A stretch of DNA of 64,000 bases from Candidatus Magasanikiibacteriota bacterium (GTDB taxonomy: Bacteria; Patescibacteriota; Patescibacteriia; Magasanikbacterales; UBA922): contig DOMK01000009.1 in assembly GCA_003510435.1 (NCBI GenBank), positions 24,675 through 88,674 of the forward strand. Reading direction: 5' to 3'. Under the pieces are notes generated by a model. The model was not told the origin of the DNA, did no database searches, and was given only the letters and a program-made list of their open reading frames with translations. Position numbers and translations under genes: made by a program. Of the stretch, positions 2,146 through 39,081 are shown in pieces. Positions within the stretch are counted from its first letter, which is position 1, and each line of letters starts with the position of its first letter.

Positions 2146-3816
2146 ATGAATATAGAACAAATAATCACGAAAATTATATCCTTTCAACCCACTACCCGGG
2201 CTGAATTTGATGATGTAAAAAGAAAAGTCTGTAACAAACTCTCAATTAACCAAATTTCTAATCGCGACCTGCTACAAGCTTACCAAAATTTATTAAAAAA
2301 GAAAAGAGTTGAGCCAGACAAAATTTTGGAAAGATTCATGCGTAAAGCTGATATTAGAACCTTATCTGGCGTAGCCGTTGTCACCTCCCTCTGTAAGCCC
2401 TATAATTGCCCTGGAAAATGCATTTACTGTCCAACTGAGGCTAGAATGCCAAAAAGCTATTTGGCCAGTGAACCAGCCGCTGCCAGAGCCCTGGCTCTGC
2501 AATTTGACCCTTATGAGCAAATGACCAGACGAATAGAAATGCTAAGGCTCTCTGGTCACCCCACTGACAAAATTGAATATATTATAAAAGGCGGATCTTG
2601 GAATGTCTATCCATTAAAATATCAATACTGGTTTATATTGGAATCTTTCCGGGCGGCAAATAATCTCGAACGAAGTGAGAGATCCCTTTTCGAAGCCTCT
2701 TCAAATGCATTAAAAAGCGATTCCTCAGTCGCTTCGCTCCTTCGGAATTTAAAAAAAGAACAAAACTACAATGACAAGATTGCAAAACACAAAATAATTG
2801 GCCTCACTCTAGAAACCAGACCCGACTGCATCACTCCAGACACAATCCATCACATGCGCCAAATGGGTTGTACAAGAATCGAACTGGGTTTGCAAGCGCC
2901 AGATGATAAAATTTTAAAATTGGTGAAACGCGGACACACAGTAGAGCAATTTAAAGACGCAATGCTTTTACTTCGTCAAGCTGGGTTTAAAGTTGATTTG
3001 CATTTTATGCCTGACCTCCCTGGTACTACTGCCAAGCATGATGTAGAGATGTATAAATCATTATTTACTGATCCTGGCTTTAAACCAGACATGGTAAAAA
3101 TTTATCCGTGTACTGTAATTAAAACGGCTGACTTGTATAAATGGTATAAACAAAAAAAATATAAACCATATTCAGAAAAGAAATTATTTGAAGCGTTAAT
3201 TGTCATGAAAATTAGTACGCCTCGTTATTGTCGTATCTCTAGATTGATTCGGGATATTCCTGATAACGAAATTATGGGCGGAAACATGATTACCAATCTT
3301 CGTCAAAATTTAAAAAAGGAAATGGCCATACGCGGACTAAAGTGCGAATGCTTGCGTTGCCGTGAAGTTGGTCACTCCACTCTACCACCTAACCACCTTA
3401 CCACTCTACCACCTAAATTGTTTGTTGATAAATATGAGACAACTGGTGGAACAGAATATTTTTTAAGTTATGAAGACAAAAAACGACAAGTGGTTTATGG
3501 TTTCCTGCGCTTGCGTTTACCCAACAAAGAAAAAAATAACTCAAACCTTTCTAGCCTTTTGGGCTTTTCAAGCCTTTCAAGCATTTCTTTTATTCGCGAA
3601 CTCCACACTTACGGTCAACTACTTGAACTAGGTACAAAAAATAAATCTGCTAGCCAGCACAAAGGTTTGGGTAAAAAATTAGTTGAAGAAGCTGAAAAGA
3701 TTGCCAAAAAAAATAGATATAAAAAACTAGCTGTAATTTCTGGGGTGGGAGTGCGTGGGTATTATCGAAAACTGGGGTATAAATTGGAAAAAACGTATAT
3801 GACAAAAAACATATAA
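2146..3816 (+). CDS. elp3: Elp3-like radical SAM / GNAT acetyltransferase (tRNA U34 carboxymethyluridine synthase homolog)
   Basis: CPGKCIYCP radical SAM Cx4Cx2C motif. The C-terminal GNAT region contains GLGKKLVEEAEKIA. Length is 556 aa, with low-complexity inserts (TLPPNHLTTLPP, SSLLGFSSLSS). Confidence 0.85.
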   Translation: MNIEQIITKIISFQPTTRAEFDDVKRKVCNKLSINQISNRDLLQAYQNLLKKKRVEPDKILERFMRKADIRTLSGVAVVTSLCKPYNCPGKCIYCPTEARMPKSYLASEPAAARALALQFDPYEQMTRRIEMLRLSGHPTDKIEYIIKGGSWNVYPLKYQYWFILESFRAANNLERSERSLFEASSNALKSDSSVASLLRNLKKEQNYNDKIAKHKIIGLTLETRPDCITPDTIHHMRQMGCTRIELGLQAPDDKILKLVKRGHTVEQFKDAMLLLRQAGFKVDLHFMPDLPGTTAKHDVEMYKSLFTDPGFKPDMVKIYPCTVIKTADLYKWYKQKKYKPYSEKKLFEALIVMKISTPRYCRISRLIRDIPDNEIMGGNMITNLRQNLKKEMAIRGLKCECLRCREVGHSTLPPNHLTTLPPKLFVDKYETTGGTEYFLSYEDKKRQVVYGFLRLRLPNKEKNNSNLSSLLGFSSLSSISFIRELHTYGQLLELGTKNKSASQHKGLGKKLVEEAEKIAKKNRYKKLAVISGVGVRGYYRKLGYKLEKTYMTKNI

Positions 3817-3892: not shown

Positions 3893-4813
3893 TTATCCAA
3901 TGTTCAAGACAATAACCCCCACAACCATAAAAATCAAAGCTAATAACTTTAACAACAAATTTTTCTTATCCCATTCTTCTTTTATATACTTGGGAGCGAA
4001 ATAAGAAATTAAACCCACTATCAAAAACACAAAAATCGCTTGAAAACCTTCCATTGCAAATACTAGTGACGTCTGTTTCAAAGACAAAGCCCATTGATTT
4101 AAGATTACTCCTCCCCAAGCAGTCAAAACCACCAAACCGACTAAAAATATATCTCGACGACCAATTACTCTAACTGTTTCAATTACTTCAATTCTAATTT
4201 TTTTAGACAATAAGATAGTACTGGCAGCAATGGCTTCAAAAATATAAAACCAAACAAAAGCGACAATCAAAGGAATTTGTTGCAGAACCTGGCGCATCAA
4301 AACACCATAAAAAGCATAACAAATACAAACAACTAACATTAGCCAAAAAGCTTTAGAAAATTTCCATTTGTTTACAGTATGATTAAAATGAAATGAGGTT
4401 AAGACAGAACCAAAAATCAAAATCAACATACCAATAAATTCAGACAAAATTAAACGATCACCAATAAAATAACCTAGACCCAAAGAAAAAATTGGAATTA
4501 AACTCCACAATATATTAATTCTACTCACCTCTTCCATTTGCATGGCTTTGATATAAGGCAAACCACCATAAAAATAAATAAAACCAGATAAAAATAATAA
4601 CAACAAAATATTGAATGATGGCAATGGATAGCCCAAAAATGGCAAAGCAAATATTAATATTATACCAACTAGAGAAAATAAAATTAAAAAAACATAAGGA
4701 TTGGCAAACCTTTTTTCTACAGCATATTTTGTCAAAATATTTTCTATTGCCCAAGAAAAATGAGCCCCGATTGCCAAAAATACCCAAACCATAAAAATTT
4801 GTCTAAAATACAA
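3893..4813 (-). CDS. polytopic membrane protein, probable DMT/EamA-family transporter
   Basis: About 10 hydrophobic segments in a two-repeat arrangement. Confidence 0.45.
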   Translation of the reverse strand: MYFRQIFMVWVFLAIGAHFSWAIENILTKYAVEKRFANPYVFLILFSLVGIILIFALPFLGYPLPSFNILLLLFLSGFIYFYGGLPYIKAMQMEEVSRINILWSLIPIFSLGLGYFIGDRLILSEFIGMLILIFGSVLTSFHFNHTVNKWKFSKAFWLMLVVCICYAFYGVLMRQVLQQIPLIVAFVWFYIFEAIAASTILLSKKIRIEVIETVRVIGRRDIFLVGLVVLTAWGGVILNQWALSLKQTSLVFAMEGFQAIFVFLIVGLISYFAPKYIKEEWDKKNLLLKLLALIFMVVGVIVLNIG

Positions 4814-16111: not shown

Positions 16112-16761
16112 TTTGATACTAAAACAATTTGATTAACCCAAGTTTCACCTTCTTTAACAAACTTATTCTCTTCTATACTAAAAGCCAAAGTCTCCAAATC
16201 CTCTATCACCTGTTCTGGTCGATGATAATATGATTCAATCTCCACAAGGCCTTGTTCAGTTTTTATTTCTGGCGCTTTTCTTTGATTTATATTTGTTAAT
16301 AAAAATTTTCCGCCTTGCCCCGAGCCAAGTCGAGGGGCTGGTTTTAAAACACGATAAACTTCATCAAAAAATAAGTTCAAATCTTTCAAATGCACAATCA
16401 AAAAAGTCGCAATCACAATATCAAAACTATTATCTTCAAAGGGGAGATCCTCAGCTTCACCAATCACTACTTTTATTTTTTGATTTTTACTTTTTAATTT
16501 ATTCAGCATCTCCTCTGATACATCCAAAGCAGTTACTTTCGCTCCAGCCTTTGCCAATCGTAAAGACAAGCGCCCATTTCCTGCACCCACATCCAAAATT
16601 TCCCTATCCTTAACTTGCCCAAGCAATGGCACAACCTGATACTGTTCAAAACTATCCCAATATTTTTCTTTTTTGGCATAATAATCGGCTGTGAGATTAT
16701 AGCCATCTTTTGAATTTAAAATTTTTACTTTCTGCATATTTTTCCTTTCACCTGACTCCAA
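16108..16761 (-). CDS. class I SAM-dependent methyltransferase (Methyltransf_11-like)
   Basis: ILDVGAGNGRL and FDIVIATFLIVHL motifs. Confidence 0.7.
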   Translation of the reverse strand: MESGERKNMQKVKILNSKDGYNLTADYYAKKEKYWDSFEQYQVVPLLGQVKDREILDVGAGNGRLSLRLAKAGAKVTALDVSEEMLNKLKSKNQKIKVVIGEAEDLPFEDNSFDIVIATFLIVHLKDLNLFFDEVYRVLKPAPRLGSGQGGKFLLTNINQRKAPEIKTEQGLVEIESYYHRPEQVIEDLETLAFSIEENKFVKEGETWVNQIVLVSK

Positions 16762-16785
16762 TAACCAAATATATTTGGAGTAAAG

Positions 16786-18330
16786 TTATTGGTGTGAGGA
16801 GTTTGGCCTTTTATAAATAAAATAAATCAATAAAATATACATAATCACCATCCCCCACCACGGCACTGTTAAATCCACAGCAGACCATTTCAAACTGGCA
16901 AAAAATTCCACGATTTTTATAATATATTGCAATCCCACCCAACCAATCCAAGCAATTATTTCACCTAAAGGCATAAATACAAAACTTATCAAAACCGCAA
17001 AAAAACCTAACATCATTATAGTCGGGATAATCCATAATATCAAGATATTAACAATCGGCGCCACAATTGATAACCGGCCAAACTGAAATAATATTAATGG
17101 CAATGTGGCAGTAATCGCTGACAAAGTAGAAATTAATGATTCTCGAATACCCAAAAATTCTGGTACTCTGTCAAACCAATTTCTAATCACGGGCGTAATA
17201 TATACTAGACCTAGAGTGGAAATAAAAGAAAGTTGAAAGCCAGCGTCCCAAAGTAAAATAAACGGATTTTGCAATGACATCACAACCGCGGTCAAAACCA
17301 AAACATTACCCACTTGCGAAGTCCTACCCACTTGTTTGGCAAGGAGTACTATAATGCCCATAATTCCAGCCCGCACCACCGATGCACTCGCTCCCGTAAA
17401 AATAACAAATAAAATAATTCCACCTGTAATTAACCAAAAAGCTTTTTTGCGCGGAATATAAAGATTAACACAAATCGCAATTAAAATTGACGCGATCAAA
17501 CTAATGTTGTAACCAGAAATAGCTACTATATGCGTCACGCCAGTTCGACTAAACATCTCATTCAATTCTCCCAATCCACCACGATAACCGTAGAGCAAAC
17601 CCGCCATAAAGCTCGCACTCGGTTCGTGCCATAGTTTATTTATTCTATCAGCGATTACATTTTTAATATCAAAAATCCCAGCCAAAATTTTACTTCCTTC
17701 TTTACCCTGAGCTAATCCGCCAGCTGGCGGAGAAGCCGAAGGGTTTATCTTTGCATTTTCACAAATTGTAAACACACCGTACCGTGCCAAATACATATCA
17801 TAACGAAAATCATTAATAATTTCTGGTTTTTGTAAATCACATTTCAATTCTAATTTATCACCATATTTATATCTGGGATAAAGTAAAGTCTTTACATAAA
17901 CATTTTTTCCAACCAAATTATCTTGTATTTTGTTACGTGTATTTTGCCTGCCCACAACGCTCTCGCTTGCGAGGCGGACGGGTATCTTGATTATATATCT
18001 CACTCCATCCATTCTCACGTCTGGCTCAGCTGACACATAACCAACGACAGTTTGTCCACCTAAATTAATTTCTGATAAAGGAAACGCTATTAAATATCTC
18101 GCTACACCCAACACAAAAACAGCACAACAGAACAACACCATTCTCATTTTTTTATTTTTCCAATATATAATCAAAAAAGATATTAAAACAAATAATGCAA
18201 AAAACAAATATACAAAATCTATTTTCCATTCCAAAAGAGAGATACTAACAATTCCCAACAAAAAAGAAAAACAAAACGTCAGGAACGTTTTGCTTTTTGA
18301 ATTTATTATTGTATTAAGCATACCCTCCAA
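16786..18330 (-). CDS. comEC: ComEC/Rec2 competence membrane channel, N-terminal plus competence domain part
   Basis: 514 aa polytopic protein; DUF4131-like N-terminus followed by a competence domain. Confidence 0.75.
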   Translation of the reverse strand: MEGMLNTIINSKSKTFLTFCFSFLLGIVSISLLEWKIDFVYLFFALFVLISFLIIYWKNKKMRMVLFCCAVFVLGVARYLIAFPLSEINLGGQTVVGYVSAEPDVRMDGVRYIIKIPVRLASESVVGRQNTRNKIQDNLVGKNVYVKTLLYPRYKYGDKLELKCDLQKPEIINDFRYDMYLARYGVFTICENAKINPSASPPAGGLAQGKEGSKILAGIFDIKNVIADRINKLWHEPSASFMAGLLYGYRGGLGELNEMFSRTGVTHIVAISGYNISLIASILIAICVNLYIPRKKAFWLITGGIILFVIFTGASASVVRAGIMGIIVLLAKQVGRTSQVGNVLVLTAVVMSLQNPFILLWDAGFQLSFISTLGLVYITPVIRNWFDRVPEFLGIRESLISTLSAITATLPLILFQFGRLSIVAPIVNILILWIIPTIMMLGFFAVLISFVFMPLGEIIAWIGWVGLQYIIKIVEFFASLKWSAVDLTVPWWGMVIMYILLIYFIYKRPNSSHQ

Positions 18331-22380: not shown

Positions 22381-22569
22381 ATGGCCCATGTTCTGGATCT
22401 TCGCGGCTCAACCATGCCACTGGCCGAACAGATCAAGACTGGGATTGCTCTCATCATGGTGGTGCCTTTCATCACAGCCTTCCTGATGAAGAGCAAATTT
22501 AGGGAGCTAAAGGCTAGGTGGTGGGACACGTTCGTCTCAGATGTCACCACTATAACAGGTGACGAATGA
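22381..22569 (+). CDS. hypothetical 62-aa membrane peptide with GC-rich codon usage and a GGAGG SD
   Basis: MAHVLDLRGSTMPLAEQIKTGIALIMVVPFITAFLMKSKF...; GGAGG lies 7 nt upstream; the local GC is atypical. Confidence 0.35.
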   Translation: MAHVLDLRGSTMPLAEQIKTGIALIMVVPFITAFLMKSKFRELKARWWDTFVSDVTTITGDE

Positions 22570-22703: not shown

Positions 22704-22732
22704 TTGACAAAATATATTTATATAATTACAAT
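22704..22732 (+). promoter_or_regulatory. sigma70 consensus-like promoter TTGACA-17-TACAAT
   Basis: Hexamers at 22704-22709 and 22727-22732. Confidence 0.5.
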
Positions 22733-22960
22733 ACTTACTCAACTTCACCTAACTCCGCTGTCAGTGCTGGTTTGGAGTCAGGTGTTGTTTGTGGGCATCG
22801 TGACATGTCGACAAAACCATGGAACCGGGGACTATTAGTAGTGACAAGCGAAAGTAGCGAAATCGGGGCAAACCCCCGTTCCCCATCTGGGTGCCAAACC
22901 TAGAATTACCGTATTCCGACGGTAATGTTTCCCAAAAGTGGTTTGACACACCCTTAATTT

Positions 22961-22991
22961 GTCATGAGGTCGGCAGTTCAAGTCTGCCTAG
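22961..22991 (+). other. tRNA-Pro 3'-half-like fragment (variable loop, T-arm, acceptor 3' strand)
   Basis: GAGGTCGGCAGTTCAAGTCTGCCTAGGCCCA matches the 3' portion of the tRNA-Pro at 45303-45375 in 29 of 31 positions. No 5' half was found. Confidence 0.6.
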
Positions 22992-23057
22992 GCCCATGGA
23001 CTGGGTGGTCACGATGAAGGGGGTGTGGGCGACGACAGCTAGCCCCTCCTCTAAAAC

Positions 23058-23090
23058 AAACCCTGTACCGTTCTGGTACAGGGTTTTATT
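23058..23090 (+). terminator. rho-independent terminator
   Basis: AAACCCTGTACC-GTTCT-GGTACAGGGTTT followed by TTTT. Confidence 0.7.
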
Positions 23091-23112
23091 TCCGTGTAAT
23101 CCTTTTTTCCGT

Positions 23113-24345
23113 TTAAATCCTTATTTTATTCGCCACTCTCTCAATTGCTTTAACAAAAGCAGCTGTTCGCATATCAATACTATATTTTTCTTTTGTTTCC
23201 CAAACTTCATCAAATGCCTGTACCATCATGGGTTCTAATTTGGCAAAGACTTCTGCTTCAGTCCAACGTTCATTTTTAATATTTTGTTCCCATTCAAAAC
23301 AAGACACCGTCACCCCACCAGCATTGGCTAATACATCTGGCACAAGAATAATCCCACGTTCTTTTAATATTTCATCAGCCTCTGGTGTAGTTGGTCCATT
23401 AGCCATTTCTACTATTACCTTAGCTTTAATATTATTTACATTTTCTGTTGTAATTTGATTTTCCATAGCTGACGGTACTAAAATATCCACTGGCAATTCT
23501 AATAATTCTTCATTAGTAATATTTTCTGTATCAGGACAATCTTTTAAACTACCTGTTTTCTCTTTATGTTCAAAAACTTTGTCCAAATCCAAAGCAACAT
23601 TATTCCTTACAACCACCCCACCTTTGGAATCGCTAATAGCAACTACACTATAACCTTCACTCTTCAAAATTTTGGCCATAAAACCGCCCACATTTCCCAT
23701 ACCCTGAATGGCAACTTTGGTTTCACCTGGATTCAAATTTAATTTTTTGGCTAATTCTTTTACTACATAAACACCGCCCTGAGCCGTAGCAGTCTCTCTA
23801 CCTTCTGAACCACCGTCTTTGATCGCTTTACCAGTAATCACGCCTGGATCAGCCTGACCAAGCAATTTTTCAAATTCATCACGCATCCAACCCATAATAG
23901 TGGGTGTGGTATACATATCCGGCGCTGGAACATCTTTATCAGAACCAATCTCTCGCCAAATTTTTTGGATATAACCACGAGATAGTCTTTCCAATTCACC
24001 AACAGACAATGTTTTGGAATCAACAATTATTCCGCCTTTACCACCACCCATAGGAATATTTACTGTCGCACATTTTACCATCATCCAAAATGATAAAGCC
24101 TTTACTTCATCAATCGATACATTTTGGTGATATCTAATTCCACCCTTATATGGTCCCATAGCGTTGTTAAACTGTGATCTATAGCCGGTAAACACTCTTA
24201 CTTCTCCATTATCCATTTTTACTGGGATTGACACGGTTAACACGCGATCTGGTTGTTTCAAGATGGCATGAATACCTTTATCTAGGTTCATGATTTTGGC
24301 AGCTTTATCTAGCTGGGACATGGCGTTGGCGAATGGGTTGGACAT
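23113..24345 (-). CDS. gdhA: glutamate dehydrogenase (Glu/Leu/Phe/Val dehydrogenase family)
   Basis: KGGIRYH and NIPMGGGKGG motifs; 410 aa. Confidence 0.9.
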   Translation of the reverse strand: MSNPFANAMSQLDKAAKIMNLDKGIHAILKQPDRVLTVSIPVKMDNGEVRVFTGYRSQFNNAMGPYKGGIRYHQNVSIDEVKALSFWMMVKCATVNIPMGGGKGGIIVDSKTLSVGELERLSRGYIQKIWREIGSDKDVPAPDMYTTPTIMGWMRDEFEKLLGQADPGVITGKAIKDGGSEGRETATAQGGVYVVKELAKKLNLNPGETKVAIQGMGNVGGFMAKILKSEGYSVVAISDSKGGVVVRNNVALDLDKVFEHKEKTGSLKDCPDTENITNEELLELPVDILVPSAMENQITTENVNNIKAKVIVEMANGPTTPEADEILKERGIILVPDVLANAGGVTVSCFEWEQNIKNERWTEAEVFAKLEPMMVQAFDEVWETKEKYSIDMRTAAFVKAIERVANKIRI

Positions 24346-35593: not shown

Positions 35594-35802
35594 GGGTTAA
35601 TTGTTAAGTTGTCTCCATTATAACAAATAGAATAAAAATGACAAGAGAGAATAAAAATGACAAATTTCTAATAACTAATATCAAATCTAAAAAATTTTAG
35701 CCATTTGTAATTAATTAGAAATTAGGTGAATTAGAAATTAAAAATTTATAAGACTTACATTAATCCATTTAGCTATTCTCAAAAAAAACACTCCACTATT
35801 TT

Positions 35803-36867: not shown

Positions 36868-36924
36868 GGAACAATATACACAGTTATAATAAATTGTATT
36901 TTGTTACGTGTATTTTGTATGTTT

Positions 36925-37695
36925 ATTTTAATCAACAAACCAAAAGACTGGACCAGTTTTGATGTGGTTGGCTATATTCGCAAGATCGCTCGCCAATCAC
37001 TCAAATCCGTAGATCCGGATAATCAGAAAATCCGTAGTTTAAAAGTCGGTCATGCTGGCACTTTAGATCCATTTGCCACTGGTCTTCTGATTGTTGGGGT
37101 TGGTCGTGAAGCTACCAAACGATTAGATGAATTTAAAAATTTGCCAAAAACTTATGTTGCGACTATAAGACTTGGCGCAGTGAGTGATACGTTTGATTCG
37201 ACAGGTGTAATTACGAACTACAAAAAATCATTGTCAAATTGTTACATGGTTACATTGCTAAAAAAACTATTCAAAAAAAATAACAATGTAACAATTCAAC
37301 AATGTAACAATGAATTCAACAAAATAGATTCTGTATTAATTCAAAACGTTTTAAATAAATTTATAGGGAAAATTAAACAAACACCACCAATGTACTCTGC
37401 GAAAAAAATCAATGGCCAAAAACTTTATGATCTCGCGCGTAAAGGAATAACTATTAGACGAAAGAAAAACAAAATTGAAATCTACAATATCAAACTAATA
37501 GAATATAATTATCCAATATTAAAAATCTCAGTCAACTGTTCCGCTGGCACCTATATTCGCACTCTGGCCAATGATATTGGTGAAAAACTCAGGGTCGGTG
37601 CATATTGTGAAGAACTGGAAAGAACTAAAATTGGTGAATATTCATTGGATGAGGCGAAAAGCATTGCAGATATAAAAAATTTACAATTCACCTAA
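36925..37695 (+). CDS. truB: tRNA pseudouridine(55) synthase. The ORF track begins at 36790; the conserved N-terminus starts near MFILINKPKDW.
   Basis: NKPKDWTSFDVV and KVGHAGTLDPFATG motifs. It contains a 15-aa repeat-derived insert SLKSVDPDNQKIRSL. Confidence 0.85.
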   Translation: MLINKPKDWTSFDVVGYIRKIARQSLKSVDPDNQKIRSLKVGHAGTLDPFATGLLIVGVGREATKRLDEFKNLPKTYVATIRLGAVSDTFDSTGVITNYKKSLSNCYMVTLLKKLFKKNNNVTIQQCNNEFNKIDSVLIQNVLNKFIGKIKQTPPMYSAKKINGQKLYDLARKGITIRRKKNKIEIYNIKLIEYNYPILKISVNCSAGTYIRTLANDIGEKLRVGAYCEELERTKIGEYSLDEAKSIADIKNLQFT

Positions 37696-37962
37696 TAAAA
37701 TATCAAATTCTAATCTAAAATAAATTATTCAAAATTTAACATTCGTCATTTTATTAGAAATTAGGTTAATTAGAAATTAGAAATTTTTTTGATTGTCATG
37801 GACAATCAAAAACTCCCCTCTACTCTAATTCTTTTTTAAAAAAGAACCAAAGCAGATTCGGGGAGTTTTTGTTTCCTCCTTTTTGGTTGTTGATTCCCTC
37901 CTCCGCGCCACACTGGCATGTTCCGATATCATCCAAGCCCTCCTAAAGAGCTGTTGGTTGTT

Positions 37963-38481
37963 TCAGCTTCCCTCCTCCGACTGAGGTAGAAGTTCGAAGA
38001 AGGGTTGTTCGGACGGCCACGTCCAGCAGAACGGACCGCTGGGCTCTTCGTCGGGCCCGTAGCCCGTGATGAATTGCCCACACTCCTGTTGATCAGTGTT
38101 ACATTCATGGTTGAATGAAATGTCCGGCATCTGGTAGTAGACTCGCCAGAACGCCTCCTGCTTGTAGTCGCGGTCACTGCACCCGGCCGTCATCTCGTCG
38201 ACCCAGAACATGATTGTGGGGTTCTTGTCATGAGAACAACATACTATTTGTCCTCTATCACCCACTCCCATGCAGTTGTGCAGGTCGCGAATACCCGGGA
38301 ACTCATGCCCGAAGTACGTCTCCACGACGTACCCGCCACTGATGGCGATCGGCACCGGCGTGCTGTCGCCCCACTTCACCGGGAGGCTGTTGTCGACCAG
38401 GATGGCCAGCGTCGCCAGGATGGCGAAACCGATGACCAACTTGCTGACGTACTTGCCCCGAAAGTCGACCTTGTTCAGCAT
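37963..38481 (-). CDS. hypothetical Cys/Trp-rich membrane-anchored or secreted protein (172 aa) in a high-GC island
   Basis: AAGGAGGG SD 9 nt upstream; N-terminal signal anchor; 7 Cys; GC3-rich codons unlike the host. Confidence 0.5.
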   Translation of the reverse strand: MLNKVDFRGKYVSKLVIGFAILATLAILVDNSLPVKWGDSTPVPIAISGGYVVETYFGHEFPGIRDLHNCMGVGDRGQIVCCSHDKNPTIMFWVDEMTAGCSDRDYKQEAFWRVYYQMPDISFNHECNTDQQECGQFITGYGPDEEPSGPFCWTWPSEQPFFELLPQSEEGS

Positions 38482-38505
38482 GATGAGACCCTCCTTCTGT
38501 GAGTT

Positions 38506-38598
38506 CTACCACCACCCCATACCCTTGGTGATAATCGCAGCCAACACAGCCGCGATCACGAAAAACGGGGTCCATCGCCCCTCCATGAAACGACTCAT
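38506..38598 (-). CDS. hypothetical 30-aa hydrophobic peptide MSRFMEGRWTPFFVIAAVLAAIITKGMGWW in the high-GC island (not in ORF track)
   Basis: GGGGGAGGGGG SD directly upstream; in an operon with the 172-aa ORF. Confidence 0.4.
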   Translation of the reverse strand: MSRFMEGRWTPFFVIAAVLAAIITKGMGWW

Positions 38599-38788
38599 CG
38601 CCCCCTCCCCCAAGGTTGGACAAATTTGAATTTACACTACCAAAAAATTATGAGAAAGTCAACCAAACATCCAATACCCTGACACCAATAACCTCACCCC
38701 AACAAATACGGAATTGGGTTATTAGAGTCAGGTACAAGGAACGAGGGGTGTGGACAACTTTCCCCTTTCTCTCCATATAAAGAGAACA

Positions 38789-38817
38789 TTGACAAAATCG
38801 CCTTAGCCTGCTATACT
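38789..38817 (+). promoter_or_regulatory. sigma70-like promoter TTGACA-17-TATACT, possibly for rny with a long 5' leader
   Basis: Hexamers at 38789-38794 and 38812-38817. Confidence 0.4.
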
Positions 38818-39081
38818 TAGGTCATATTAAATTAATAATGCTGTGAAAAGAATCGACTGATTATAGATGCAAGCCATGAAGAAAAACGGGATATTATGAA
38901 TAAAATTAGCTTAATTAAGCCAATTTACACTTCCCAAAACTTAAAAACTTCATACCTTTACCCTACTTTGGGTAATGATTTTCGCATCTAATAATCTCAA
39001 TCTCCCCTTTTTAAGGGGAGACTAAGAGGGGTTATTTTAACCCAAGTCAATTCTCTTAACACAGTTTAGAGAAGTTTTTTT

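Follow-up and report, generated by a model that had tools for sequence, protein, structure and literature searches.

The 64,000-nucleotide (nt) stretch of DNA analysed here, referred to as the window, lies on a contig of Candidatus Magasanikbacteria, a lineage of the candidate phyla radiation (CPR; Patescibacteria), as judged by its genes and closest relatives. Between truB and rny it carries a GC-rich island, at approximately 37,870-38,620, that holds a two-gene cassette, pep30-orf172. GC content within the island ranges from 0.53 to 0.61 over 200-nt segments, against 0.343 for the whole window, and apart from the island none of the window's 1-kb bins exceeds 0.40. A first-pass annotation, made from the sequence alone, had put the contrast at about 60% against a background of about 32%; the contrast holds, whereas the values require correction to about 56-57% against 34%, the island proper comprising 751 nt with 56.3% GC. 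The left neighbour, truB, encodes a protein with the Pfam domain TruB_N, and the right neighbour, rny, a protein with RNase_Y_N, KH and HD domains, the wider neighbourhood consisting of truB, rny, HU, IF-2 and similar housekeeping genes. Integrase, transposase, reverse transcriptase and phage genes are absent among the 10 open reading frames (ORFs) of at least 90 amino acids (aa) on each side (21.4-53.2 kb, about 15 kb each way). Neither a tRNA target nor flanking direct or terminal repeats were found at the island, where only an internal duplication of a short motif occurs. Searching Rfam at gathering score returned two tRNAs at 41.3-41.5 kb and nothing else in the window, and a permissive scan at the island gave only spurious sub-threshold matches to hairpins of the microRNA type.

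The cassette was recovered as previously described, with two minus-strand genes separated by a 24-nt spacer and a Shine-Dalgarno (SD) sequence ahead of each ATG (Table 1). GC contents at the first, second and third codon positions are 0.54, 0.41 and 0.76 for orf172 and 0.42, 0.52 and 0.74 for pep30, with truB and rny showing a third-position value (GC3) of 0.28. Among the window's ORFs of 90 aa or more, the other 54 have a mean GC3 of 0.253 (standard deviation 0.046), which orf172 exceeds by 11 standard deviations, bearing out the earlier remark that codon use here is GC3-rich and unlike that of the neighbours. Length alone is weak coding evidence, 4% of dinucleotide shuffles of the island yielding an ORF of at least 172 aa; codon periodicity in orf172 is pronounced, with a GC3-GC2 difference of 0.36 and z = 5.6 against long ORFs in shuffles. 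Related genes at the same site in two relatives, the orthologues P0002 and P0003 of loci L003 and L032, show a ratio of nonsynonymous to synonymous divergence (dN/dS) of 0.22, indicating that genuine protein genes under constraint occupy this site. The identical 172-aa product is called in two other collections, whereas the NCBI annotation holds only a 102-aa product from Met71 and does not call pep30. The cassette is real and both ORFs carry coding signal; the public annotation of the locus, with its 102-aa fragment and missing pep30, is wrong.

Table 1. Features at and around the truB-rny island, in window positions.
Feature	Position	Strand	Remarks
truB	36919-37695		left neighbour
Second small hairpin	37786-37812	-	12-bp perfect palindrome and T-run; inverted-repeat scan
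Conserved 3' frame	37803-37916	-	untranslated-region piece (motif copy 2 at 37883-37904, AAAGGAGG) plus hairpin; alignments, covariance model R1
Long imperfect hairpin AAAAACTCCCC...GGGGAGTTTTT	37808-37870	.	29-bp; U/T runs on both sides; bidirectional terminator for cassette and truB
SD TAGGAGGG plus ATG	37825-37932	-	35-codon ORF only; between frame-motif copies
Frame motif copy 1 GGAGGAGGGAA..AACAACCAA	37954-37978	-	provides the last codons and stop of orf172
orf172	37963-38481	-	172 aa; N-terminal hydrophobic anchor at about residues 12-30; acidic 7-Cys ectodomain (pI 4.3); orphan ORF (ORFan)
Host-like patch 2 DISFNHECNTDQQECGQ	38074-38124	-	orf172 codons 120-136
Host-like patch 1 VGDRGQIVCCSHD	38227-38265	-	orf172 codons 73-85, nearly all AT-ending
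orf172 SD AAGGAGGG	38489-38496	-	read from sequence
pep30 MSRFMEGRWTPFFVIAAVLAAIITKGMGWW	38506-38598	-	30 aa; basic (pI 10.8); single-pass hydrophobic
pep30 SD GGGGGAGGGGG	38601-38611	-	read from sequence
Cassette promoter-like site	38634-38662	-	TTGACT (38662-38657), 17-nt spacer, TG-n-TAGTGT, -10 at 38639-38634
REP-like (repetitive extragenic palindromic) hairpin CTGACnCCAATAAC...GTTATTnGnGTCAG	38678-38732, 16745-16800	.	native-type; each copy upstream of a minus-strand gene start; 38678 copy upstream of cassette promoter
rny promoter	38789-38817	+	TTGACA-17-TATACT; divergent; right-hand edge of the segment inserted relative to L004
rny	start 39082		right neighbour

Hydropathy points to one transmembrane (TM) helix in pep30 (Kyte-Doolittle maximum 2.06 in a 17-residue window), whose C-terminus is WW. 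In orf172 the maximum of 2.3 falls on residues 12-28, the helix being preceded by K4, R8, K10 and K14. Hydropathy thus supports the N-terminal anchor predicted in the first-pass annotation; the 7 cysteines noted there were found again, and the tryptophans, described there as many, number 5. A type IV pilin-like signal was considered for orf172 and rejected (...FRG/KYVSK..., with Lys at +5 and a class III signal without Glu), and so was a lipoprotein, motif inspection revealing no lipobox. As orf172 has neither a lipobox, a pilin-type G/E+5 signal nor an obvious signal-peptidase site, its N-terminus is read as a signal anchor; it would remain uncleaved, placing the domain outside the cell.

The cassette is framed by noncoding sequence on both sides. 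A promoter-like layout of the form TTGAC(A/T)-N17-TA(G/T)(T/G)GT, matching the promoter-like site ahead of pep30, also precedes the first SD in L003 and L030. Downstream of orf172 a 3' untranslated region (UTR) of about 90 nt is followed by a long hairpin, in which the nested hairpin reported earlier was located, and then by a second small hairpin; the UTR and long hairpin together fold at -59 kcal/mol (z -5.5). Two copies of the frame motif, 74 nt apart, are present in the window, where 0.01 would be expected. The 35-codon ORF lying between them is possibly a remnant of a second cassette ORF, judging by L030, where a complete second ORF occupies the corresponding position. About 110 nt of this 3' frame are common to all filled loci described below, with 87-93% identity, and a covariance model of it (R1) scores 112-131 bits in all of them. 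Between L003 and L032 the frame is 93% identical while 4-fold degenerate sites differ by 48%. The best R1 match elsewhere, of 23 bits (E about 0.002), falls at the 3' end of an unrelated high-GC islet in L004. The stems show essentially no covariation, and of the two GC-changing stem positions one is only a G-C to G-U change. The hairpin could be more than a terminator; the hairpin pattern and the profile of the slot family gave no match in viral contigs.

Comparison loci, denoted by L numbers, were obtained through rny and through the hairpin sequence. In L004, whose rny product is 98% identical at the amino acid level, the site is empty: about 70 nt separate the truB stop from the rny promoter, the hairpin is absent too, and the window is longer by about 1.1 kb (37643-38786). 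L001 and L002 have the same layout. The site is filled, on the minus strand with 55-61% GC, in L003 (the same as L028 and L029; GW2011_GWC2_37_14), encoding a 73-aa TM peptide and a 200-aa anchored Cys-rich protein. L030, likewise on the minus strand with ORFs of 49-52% GC, encodes a 132-aa anchored Cys-rich protein and a 128-aa signal-peptide protein, and L032 holds, also on the minus strand, an ORF of 61% GC for a 205-aa protein that is 68% identical to the L003 protein. The L031 contig breaks off after 45 nt of the last ORF, showing the same 3' frame and an ORF end unlike the L003 family, with a truB 89% identical to that of L003. Filled sites (the window, L030, L003, L031 and L032) and empty ones (L004, L001 and L002) are interleaved in both rny subclades. 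Between orf172 and the other slot proteins, BLASTP gives E values of 0.02 or worse. The slot is recurrent, with high-GC minus-strand cassettes in at least four Magasanikbacteria lineages besides that of the window, and has a conserved frame; orf172 is without detectable similarity to the other contents, and empty sites exist. This is the context absent from the first-pass annotation: a recurrent variable slot that the island occupies, with the hairpin as part of its conserved noncoding frame. Since the closest sibling lacks the cassette and the composition is foreign, the earlier proposal of a horizontally acquired accessory module stands, and a horizontally acquired surface module is the best-supported reading.

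The continuity of the island with its surroundings is supported by two further assemblies. L033 (ENA, SRR2177951, groundwater) matches window positions 37849-39031 and L034 (Logan, SRR5855242) positions 37754-38836, each at 100% identity. Both span the two GC junctions, which refutes the suggestion of a binning or assembly chimera. Analogous islands in independently assembled relatives speak against it as well, and this comparative evidence, of islands at the same site, is stronger than contig identity.

Homology searches for orf172 were extensive. A word-index search of 5.8 billion clustered proteins returned the protein itself or nothing, an exhaustive HMMER search of 1.84 billion representative proteins found no homologue, back-translated scans of genome and viral contigs found no relative, and neither tblastn against phages and plasmids nor a PDB search gave a match. 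Pfam, PHROGs, NCBIfam and PADLOC contain no family for any of the islet proteins, in agreement with the earlier failure to recognise either product, and these searches showed no homology of the 172-aa protein to a housekeeping family of the host lineage. Protein, contig, phage and plasmid searches yielded neither a donor nor a closer homologue outside the host lineage. The Actinobacteria-like donor proposed earlier is unsupported. The only high-GC import that could be traced, a transporter gene in a sister genome described below, points to a lineage that is unclassified and has a GC content of about 57%. Published work on the truB-rny locus was not found, only general studies of horizontal gene transfer and genomic islands in Patescibacteria, both of which have been reported for groundwater members of the group (PMC12455944).

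Translation signals and codon usage further distinguish the cassette from the genome around it. Upstream of any candidate start within their first 40 codons, the 54 native ORFs never show an SD core of 5 nt or longer; in contrast to the island, this genome seems to make little use, if any, of strong SD sites. On the minus strand, 10 of the 29 GGAGG pentamers of the 64-kb window fall within the 0.8-kb island. Codon usage in orf172 is itself mosaic: 133 backbone codons have a GC3 of 0.90, while three sharply bounded patches totalling 39 codons have a GC3 of 0.31, the host level. The longest AT-ending run comprises 11 codons (permutation p 1e-5), and four of the seven Cys codons lie inside patches, all as TGT, the other three being TGC. 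A template for the patches was found neither in the window nor in the comparison sequences. A diversity-generating retroelement target was considered and rejected, with no second island copy or template repeat in the 64-kb window and no reverse transcriptase among the neighbours.

The duplicated frame motif and the codon patches of orf172 are read as traces of recombination, and the flank bears a further one. Between the window and L004, truB has 72% aa identity with a synonymous divergence (dS) of 0.89 and a nonsynonymous divergence (dN) of 0.28, whereas the methyltransferase gene, rny and HU have dS values of 0.36-0.54 (rny 98% identical, dS 0.47; HU 100%, dS 0.36). The C-terminal end of the L004 truB (L004 4942-5700) extends into former intergenic sequence. 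This divergence of truB suggests a mosaic produced by recombination, or a deletion boundary, at the slot. Import of GC-rich genes into the clade is documented on the contig of L003, where a 694-aa OPT-family oligopeptide transporter (L028 10717-12801) has 60% GC in a Magasanikbacteria genome of 37% GC. Its nearest relatives, with 64-66% identity, lie on contigs of uniformly 56-58% GC with ordinary metabolic neighbours; among named relatives a Planctomycetes protein comes next, at 55%. The OPT gene was clearly acquired from outside the CPR, from a GC-rich lineage, demonstrating that such import does occur in this clade.

We regard it as probable, with moderate confidence, that the island is an autonomous accessory unit in a lineage-specific truB-rny slot whose contents come from a GC-rich pool and are reshuffled by recombination. 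The unit would consist of the promoter-like site, pep30, orf172, the conserved 3' UTR and the bidirectional terminator hairpin. Its noncoding frame would be inherited within the Candidatus Magasanikbacteria clade, and the ORFs between the frame elements would be drawn from a GC-rich pool that is foreign or long separated. As to direction and mechanism, we infer that recombination would replace, truncate or delete slot ORFs, leaving species that differ in ORFans without detectable similarity or have an empty site. In this genome the products would be a 30-aa basic single-pass membrane peptide and a 172-aa anchored protein exposing an acidic 7-Cys ectodomain. A role at the cell surface may be envisaged, where the protein would meet, for example, a competitor, a phage, or a partner or host cell, with pep30 as a membrane partner.

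Several observations weigh against this reading. Import is deduced from composition and patchy distribution, the searches having yielded no donor sequence, and L033 may derive from the same reads as the metagenome-assembled genome itself. The cassette promoter is tentative because it does not reach the cut-off of the consensus scan, and the proposed function leans on hydropathy and composition, both AlphaFold2 models being unusable (pLDDT 40 for orf172 alone, 35 for P0002 with P0003). The L003 and L032 orthologues retain a GC3 of 0.77-0.78 despite near-saturated synonymous divergence, with 48% of shared 4-fold sites differing (saturation about 66%), while truB has a GC3 of 0.32-0.33 at a similar dS. 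A simple course of recent import followed by amelioration does not predict such persistence. Among these differences 11 of 30 are C<->G exchanges, which together with the retained GC3 indicates that the two orthologues diverged under a regime favouring GC3; this regime was either that of a GC-rich reservoir, the genes then having entered the slot on separate occasions, or that of an unexplained force within the host. Finally, the 200-aa protein of L003 and the 132-aa protein of L030 are homologous across subclades, sharing DGCVTxPYxG and CCPC motifs. Part of the slot content is consequently old, and orf172 could be a relative diverged beyond recognition.

The retained GC3 and the shared motifs also count in favour of an alternative in which one ancient insertion was inherited vertically, the contents being orthologues diverged beyond recognition, with losses in some lineages and a local force keeping GC high. 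The 3' UTR subtypes track the rny subclades, subtype B comprising the window and L030 and subtype A comprising L003, L031 and L032, and the dS of the cassette between L003 and L032 (1.07) is near that of truB (0.9-1.3). A weak [KR]W[ST]P-TM-G[ML]G pattern links pep30 to the 73-aa peptide of L003, likewise the first gene of its cassette, with a pairwise E of only 0.007, and a forced alignment of orf172 with P0002 has the order Y-x-G...NC...CC in common. Against these resemblances, hhalign of orf172 with the profile of the L003/L032/L030 family gives a probability of 3%, with a 13-residue WGDxxPVP coincidence only. The L003 and L032 proteins are 68% identical, whereas the window and L003, at a like truB distance, show no detectable similarity, and L031 has a different ORF end in spite of its close truB. 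Vertical inheritance would also need GC3 to be held at 0.8-0.9 against a genomic value of 0.25; to our knowledge no mechanism achieves this, and the L030 alleles are already at 0.46-0.58. A single ancient insertion appears unlikely, though it is the most credible of the alternatives.

The first-pass annotation had also raised a toxin- or bacteriocin-like module, or a type I toxin-like peptide with a partner. In a fuller form of this idea pep30 would damage membranes, as a type I toxin, a leaderless bacteriocin or a holin-like peptide, orf172 would be its partner, immunity protein or effector, and an arms race would lie behind the variability. The size, basic charge, hydrophobicity and WW end of pep30 suit this idea, as does an accessory, strain-variable unit with its own promoter and terminator. 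It fares poorly in other respects: a consensus-only scan reveals no sigma-70-like site on the plus strand at 37.9-38.7 kb from which an antisense RNA might start, and the SD of pep30 is strong and appears exposed, not sequestered, in a transcript that would be shared with orf172. No double-glycine leader, ABC exporter, modification, immunity or lysis gene lies within about 15 kb, where the neighbours are housekeeping genes, PADLOC, PHROGs, Pfam and NCBIfam give no bacteriocin or defence-family match, and the L030 and L032 alleles lack the small peptide, making a toxin improbable. Marginally less credible still is site-specific exchange, with the hairpin frame as an attC-like recombination site, a recombinase encoded elsewhere and GC-rich ORF cassettes mobile among these bacteria. 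Such a scheme would account for a hairpin and UTR conserved at 87-93% beside near-saturated synonymous sites, for dissimilar ORFans placed immediately upstream of the hairpin, for the frame motif duplicated at an ORF junction, and for the off-slot match at the end of a different L004 islet. That match is weak, however, and the hairpin has no RYYYAAC/GTTRRRY boxes and also serves as an ordinary bidirectional terminator whose stem changes include one of the G-C to G-U kind only. There is one slot and no array, the flanking 15 kb or so on each side are free of integrase, transposase and reverse transcriptase genes, and the cassette has its own promoter-like site. Identity with attC was rejected directly, the arms AAAAACTCCCC / GGGGAGTTTTT carrying no R''/R' boxes on either strand. 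An artefact, be it misassembly, a contaminant or a GC-rich structured noncoding RNA with accidental ORFs, can practically be discounted. The sharp jump in composition, the shuffle probability of 0.04 for ORF length and the divergent NCBI annotation would fit it; the junctions are nevertheless identical in two other assemblies, homologous frames occur at five loci from different projects, and codon periodicity with SD sites, alongside the spurious Rfam matches, rules out a noncoding RNA.

The accessory unit in a lineage-specific slot thus accounts best for the evidence, and it bears on a wider problem, as CPR/Patescibacteria rely on contact with other cells through surface proteins that are for the most part uncharacterised ORFans. 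A slot repeatedly receiving membrane-anchored ORFans would give a handle on how surface repertoires are renewed in reduced genomes, and the 3' frame model makes such a slot easy to detect. Persistent high GC, SD-rich cassettes in an SD-poor genome and a frame conserved beyond synonymous sites stand outside the standard picture of import followed by amelioration. As a long shot, the locus may represent an undescribed system of cassette exchange at the level of single ORFs. The frame would be a docking site for small GC-rich surface-protein ORFs from a pool that stays GC-rich over the long term, the hairpin, a relative of which ends a second islet in L004, would be a recombination or recognition element, and the host-like patches at the Cys motifs would be footprints of short-patch rewriting. 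Should the frame be a dedicated exchange site, interest in the locus would rise.

Several repeats lie close to the slot. A DnaA-box sequence, TTATCCACA (TTGTCCACA in the window, at 38745-38753), sits just upstream of the rny promoter and is conserved across the clade, at about 5705 in L001, 5702 in L002, 5697 in L004, 5715 in L003 and 52 in L032, the orientation in the window being inverted. L003 contains a 72-nt inverted-repeat pair (302-373 and 4579-4650) with 92% identity, resembling miniature inverted-repeat transposable elements or REP sequences, one copy of which falls within the 3' extension of truB, directly beside the slot hairpin. An AT-rich repeat of 32-35 nt, AATTAGAAATTAGGTnAATTAGAAATTAnAAAT, occurs in the window at 35713-35747 and 37757-37788 and in L004 at about 3680-3715; it follows the methyltransferase gene and truB and adjoins islet sites. 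This repeat (AATTAGAAATTAG...) was considered as an att site and rejected, being present at an empty site as well and oriented inconsistently relative to the islets.

Other GC-rich islets were observed. In L004, an islet at 3170-3617 (ORF 3177-3467) encodes a 96-aa two-TM ORFan, the equivalent window site (35645-35703) being empty, and its terminal hairpin AAAAAATCCCCC...GGGGGATTTTTT is the weak match to the 3' frame model of the truB-rny slot. In L030, an islet of 50-56% GC at 1400-2230, between the methyltransferase gene and truB, holds three minus-strand ORFans of 106, 96 and 62 aa. The window itself contains a second high-GC islet on the plus strand at 22381-22569, smaller than the truB-rny island. 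Its product is an ORFan of 62 aa with one TM segment (MAHVLDLRG...), and the gene has a GGAGG SD and a GC3 of 0.62. Terminator hairpins follow the islet to about 22700, an identical protein occurs on the JGI metagenome contig L035, and no Pfam or PADLOC family was found for the protein. Next to this islet, at 22705-23095 on the plus strand, lies a promoter-to-terminator unit of about 330 nt and 50% GC, with the promoter TTGACA-17-TACAAT and no convincing ORF. It includes a T-arm-like GGCAGTTCAAGTCTGCC, has a minimum free energy z of -4.0 and gave no match in Rfam (gathering score or E<=1) or ARAGORN; it is a candidate structured RNA, possibly a divergent tmRNA, an RNase P RNA or an intron-containing tRNA. 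Between the window and L035, a 2.6-kb contig with 99% identity, all 25 mismatches fall within 72 nt at 23209-23280, where the glutamate dehydrogenase gene has its 3' end; they mark a short tract of recombination or else an artefact of the contig end.

Comparison with known systems places the truB-rny unit among accessory elements. Type I toxin-antitoxin systems encode small hydrophobic peptides such as Fst, TisB and Ldr, and pep30, as a single-helix hydrophobic peptide of about 30 aa, falls within their range of less than 60 aa. It differs in showing no antisense promoter in the consensus-only scan and no family match, in its strong and apparently accessible SD and in its probable co-transcription with a larger, putatively exported protein. 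Integron cassettes are small ORFan ORFs, often of deviant GC, each followed by an imperfect attC hairpin of 60-110 nt, and isolated attC sites without an integrase exist. The slot resembles them in its small, mutually dissimilar ORFans of deviant GC and in the conserved imperfect hairpin behind them, but it lacks R''/R' boxes, a nearby intI and an array, and its cassette is not promoterless, leaving the likeness an analogy only. Phage morons, a term of Hendrix and colleagues, are reportedly independent promoter-gene-terminator units of deviant composition whose products are often membrane or surface proteins. The cassette shares its own promoter and terminator, a composition unlike the neighbours and membrane or surface products with them, differing in its position outside a prophage, among housekeeping genes, and in giving no match in PHROGs or phage databases. 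Horizontally acquired genomic islets, or flexible genomic islands, that are replaced by homologous recombination via conserved flanks are similar in atypical composition, patchy occurrence among close relatives, location between housekeeping genes, strain-variable content and the mosaic truB flank. Unlike them, the cassette measures 0.75 kb, without mobility genes, a tRNA target or direct-repeat ends, and the replaced unit is limited to the ORFs inside a frame of promoter, UTR and terminator. Its GC deviation is also upward in an AT-rich genome, and its ORFans have no relatives anywhere searched. The element is therefore of a known kind, a genomic islet or moron-like accessory unit; what is new is a recurrent slot with a conserved noncoding frame that carries GC-rich membrane-anchored ORFans in an SD-poor, AT-rich CPR clade.

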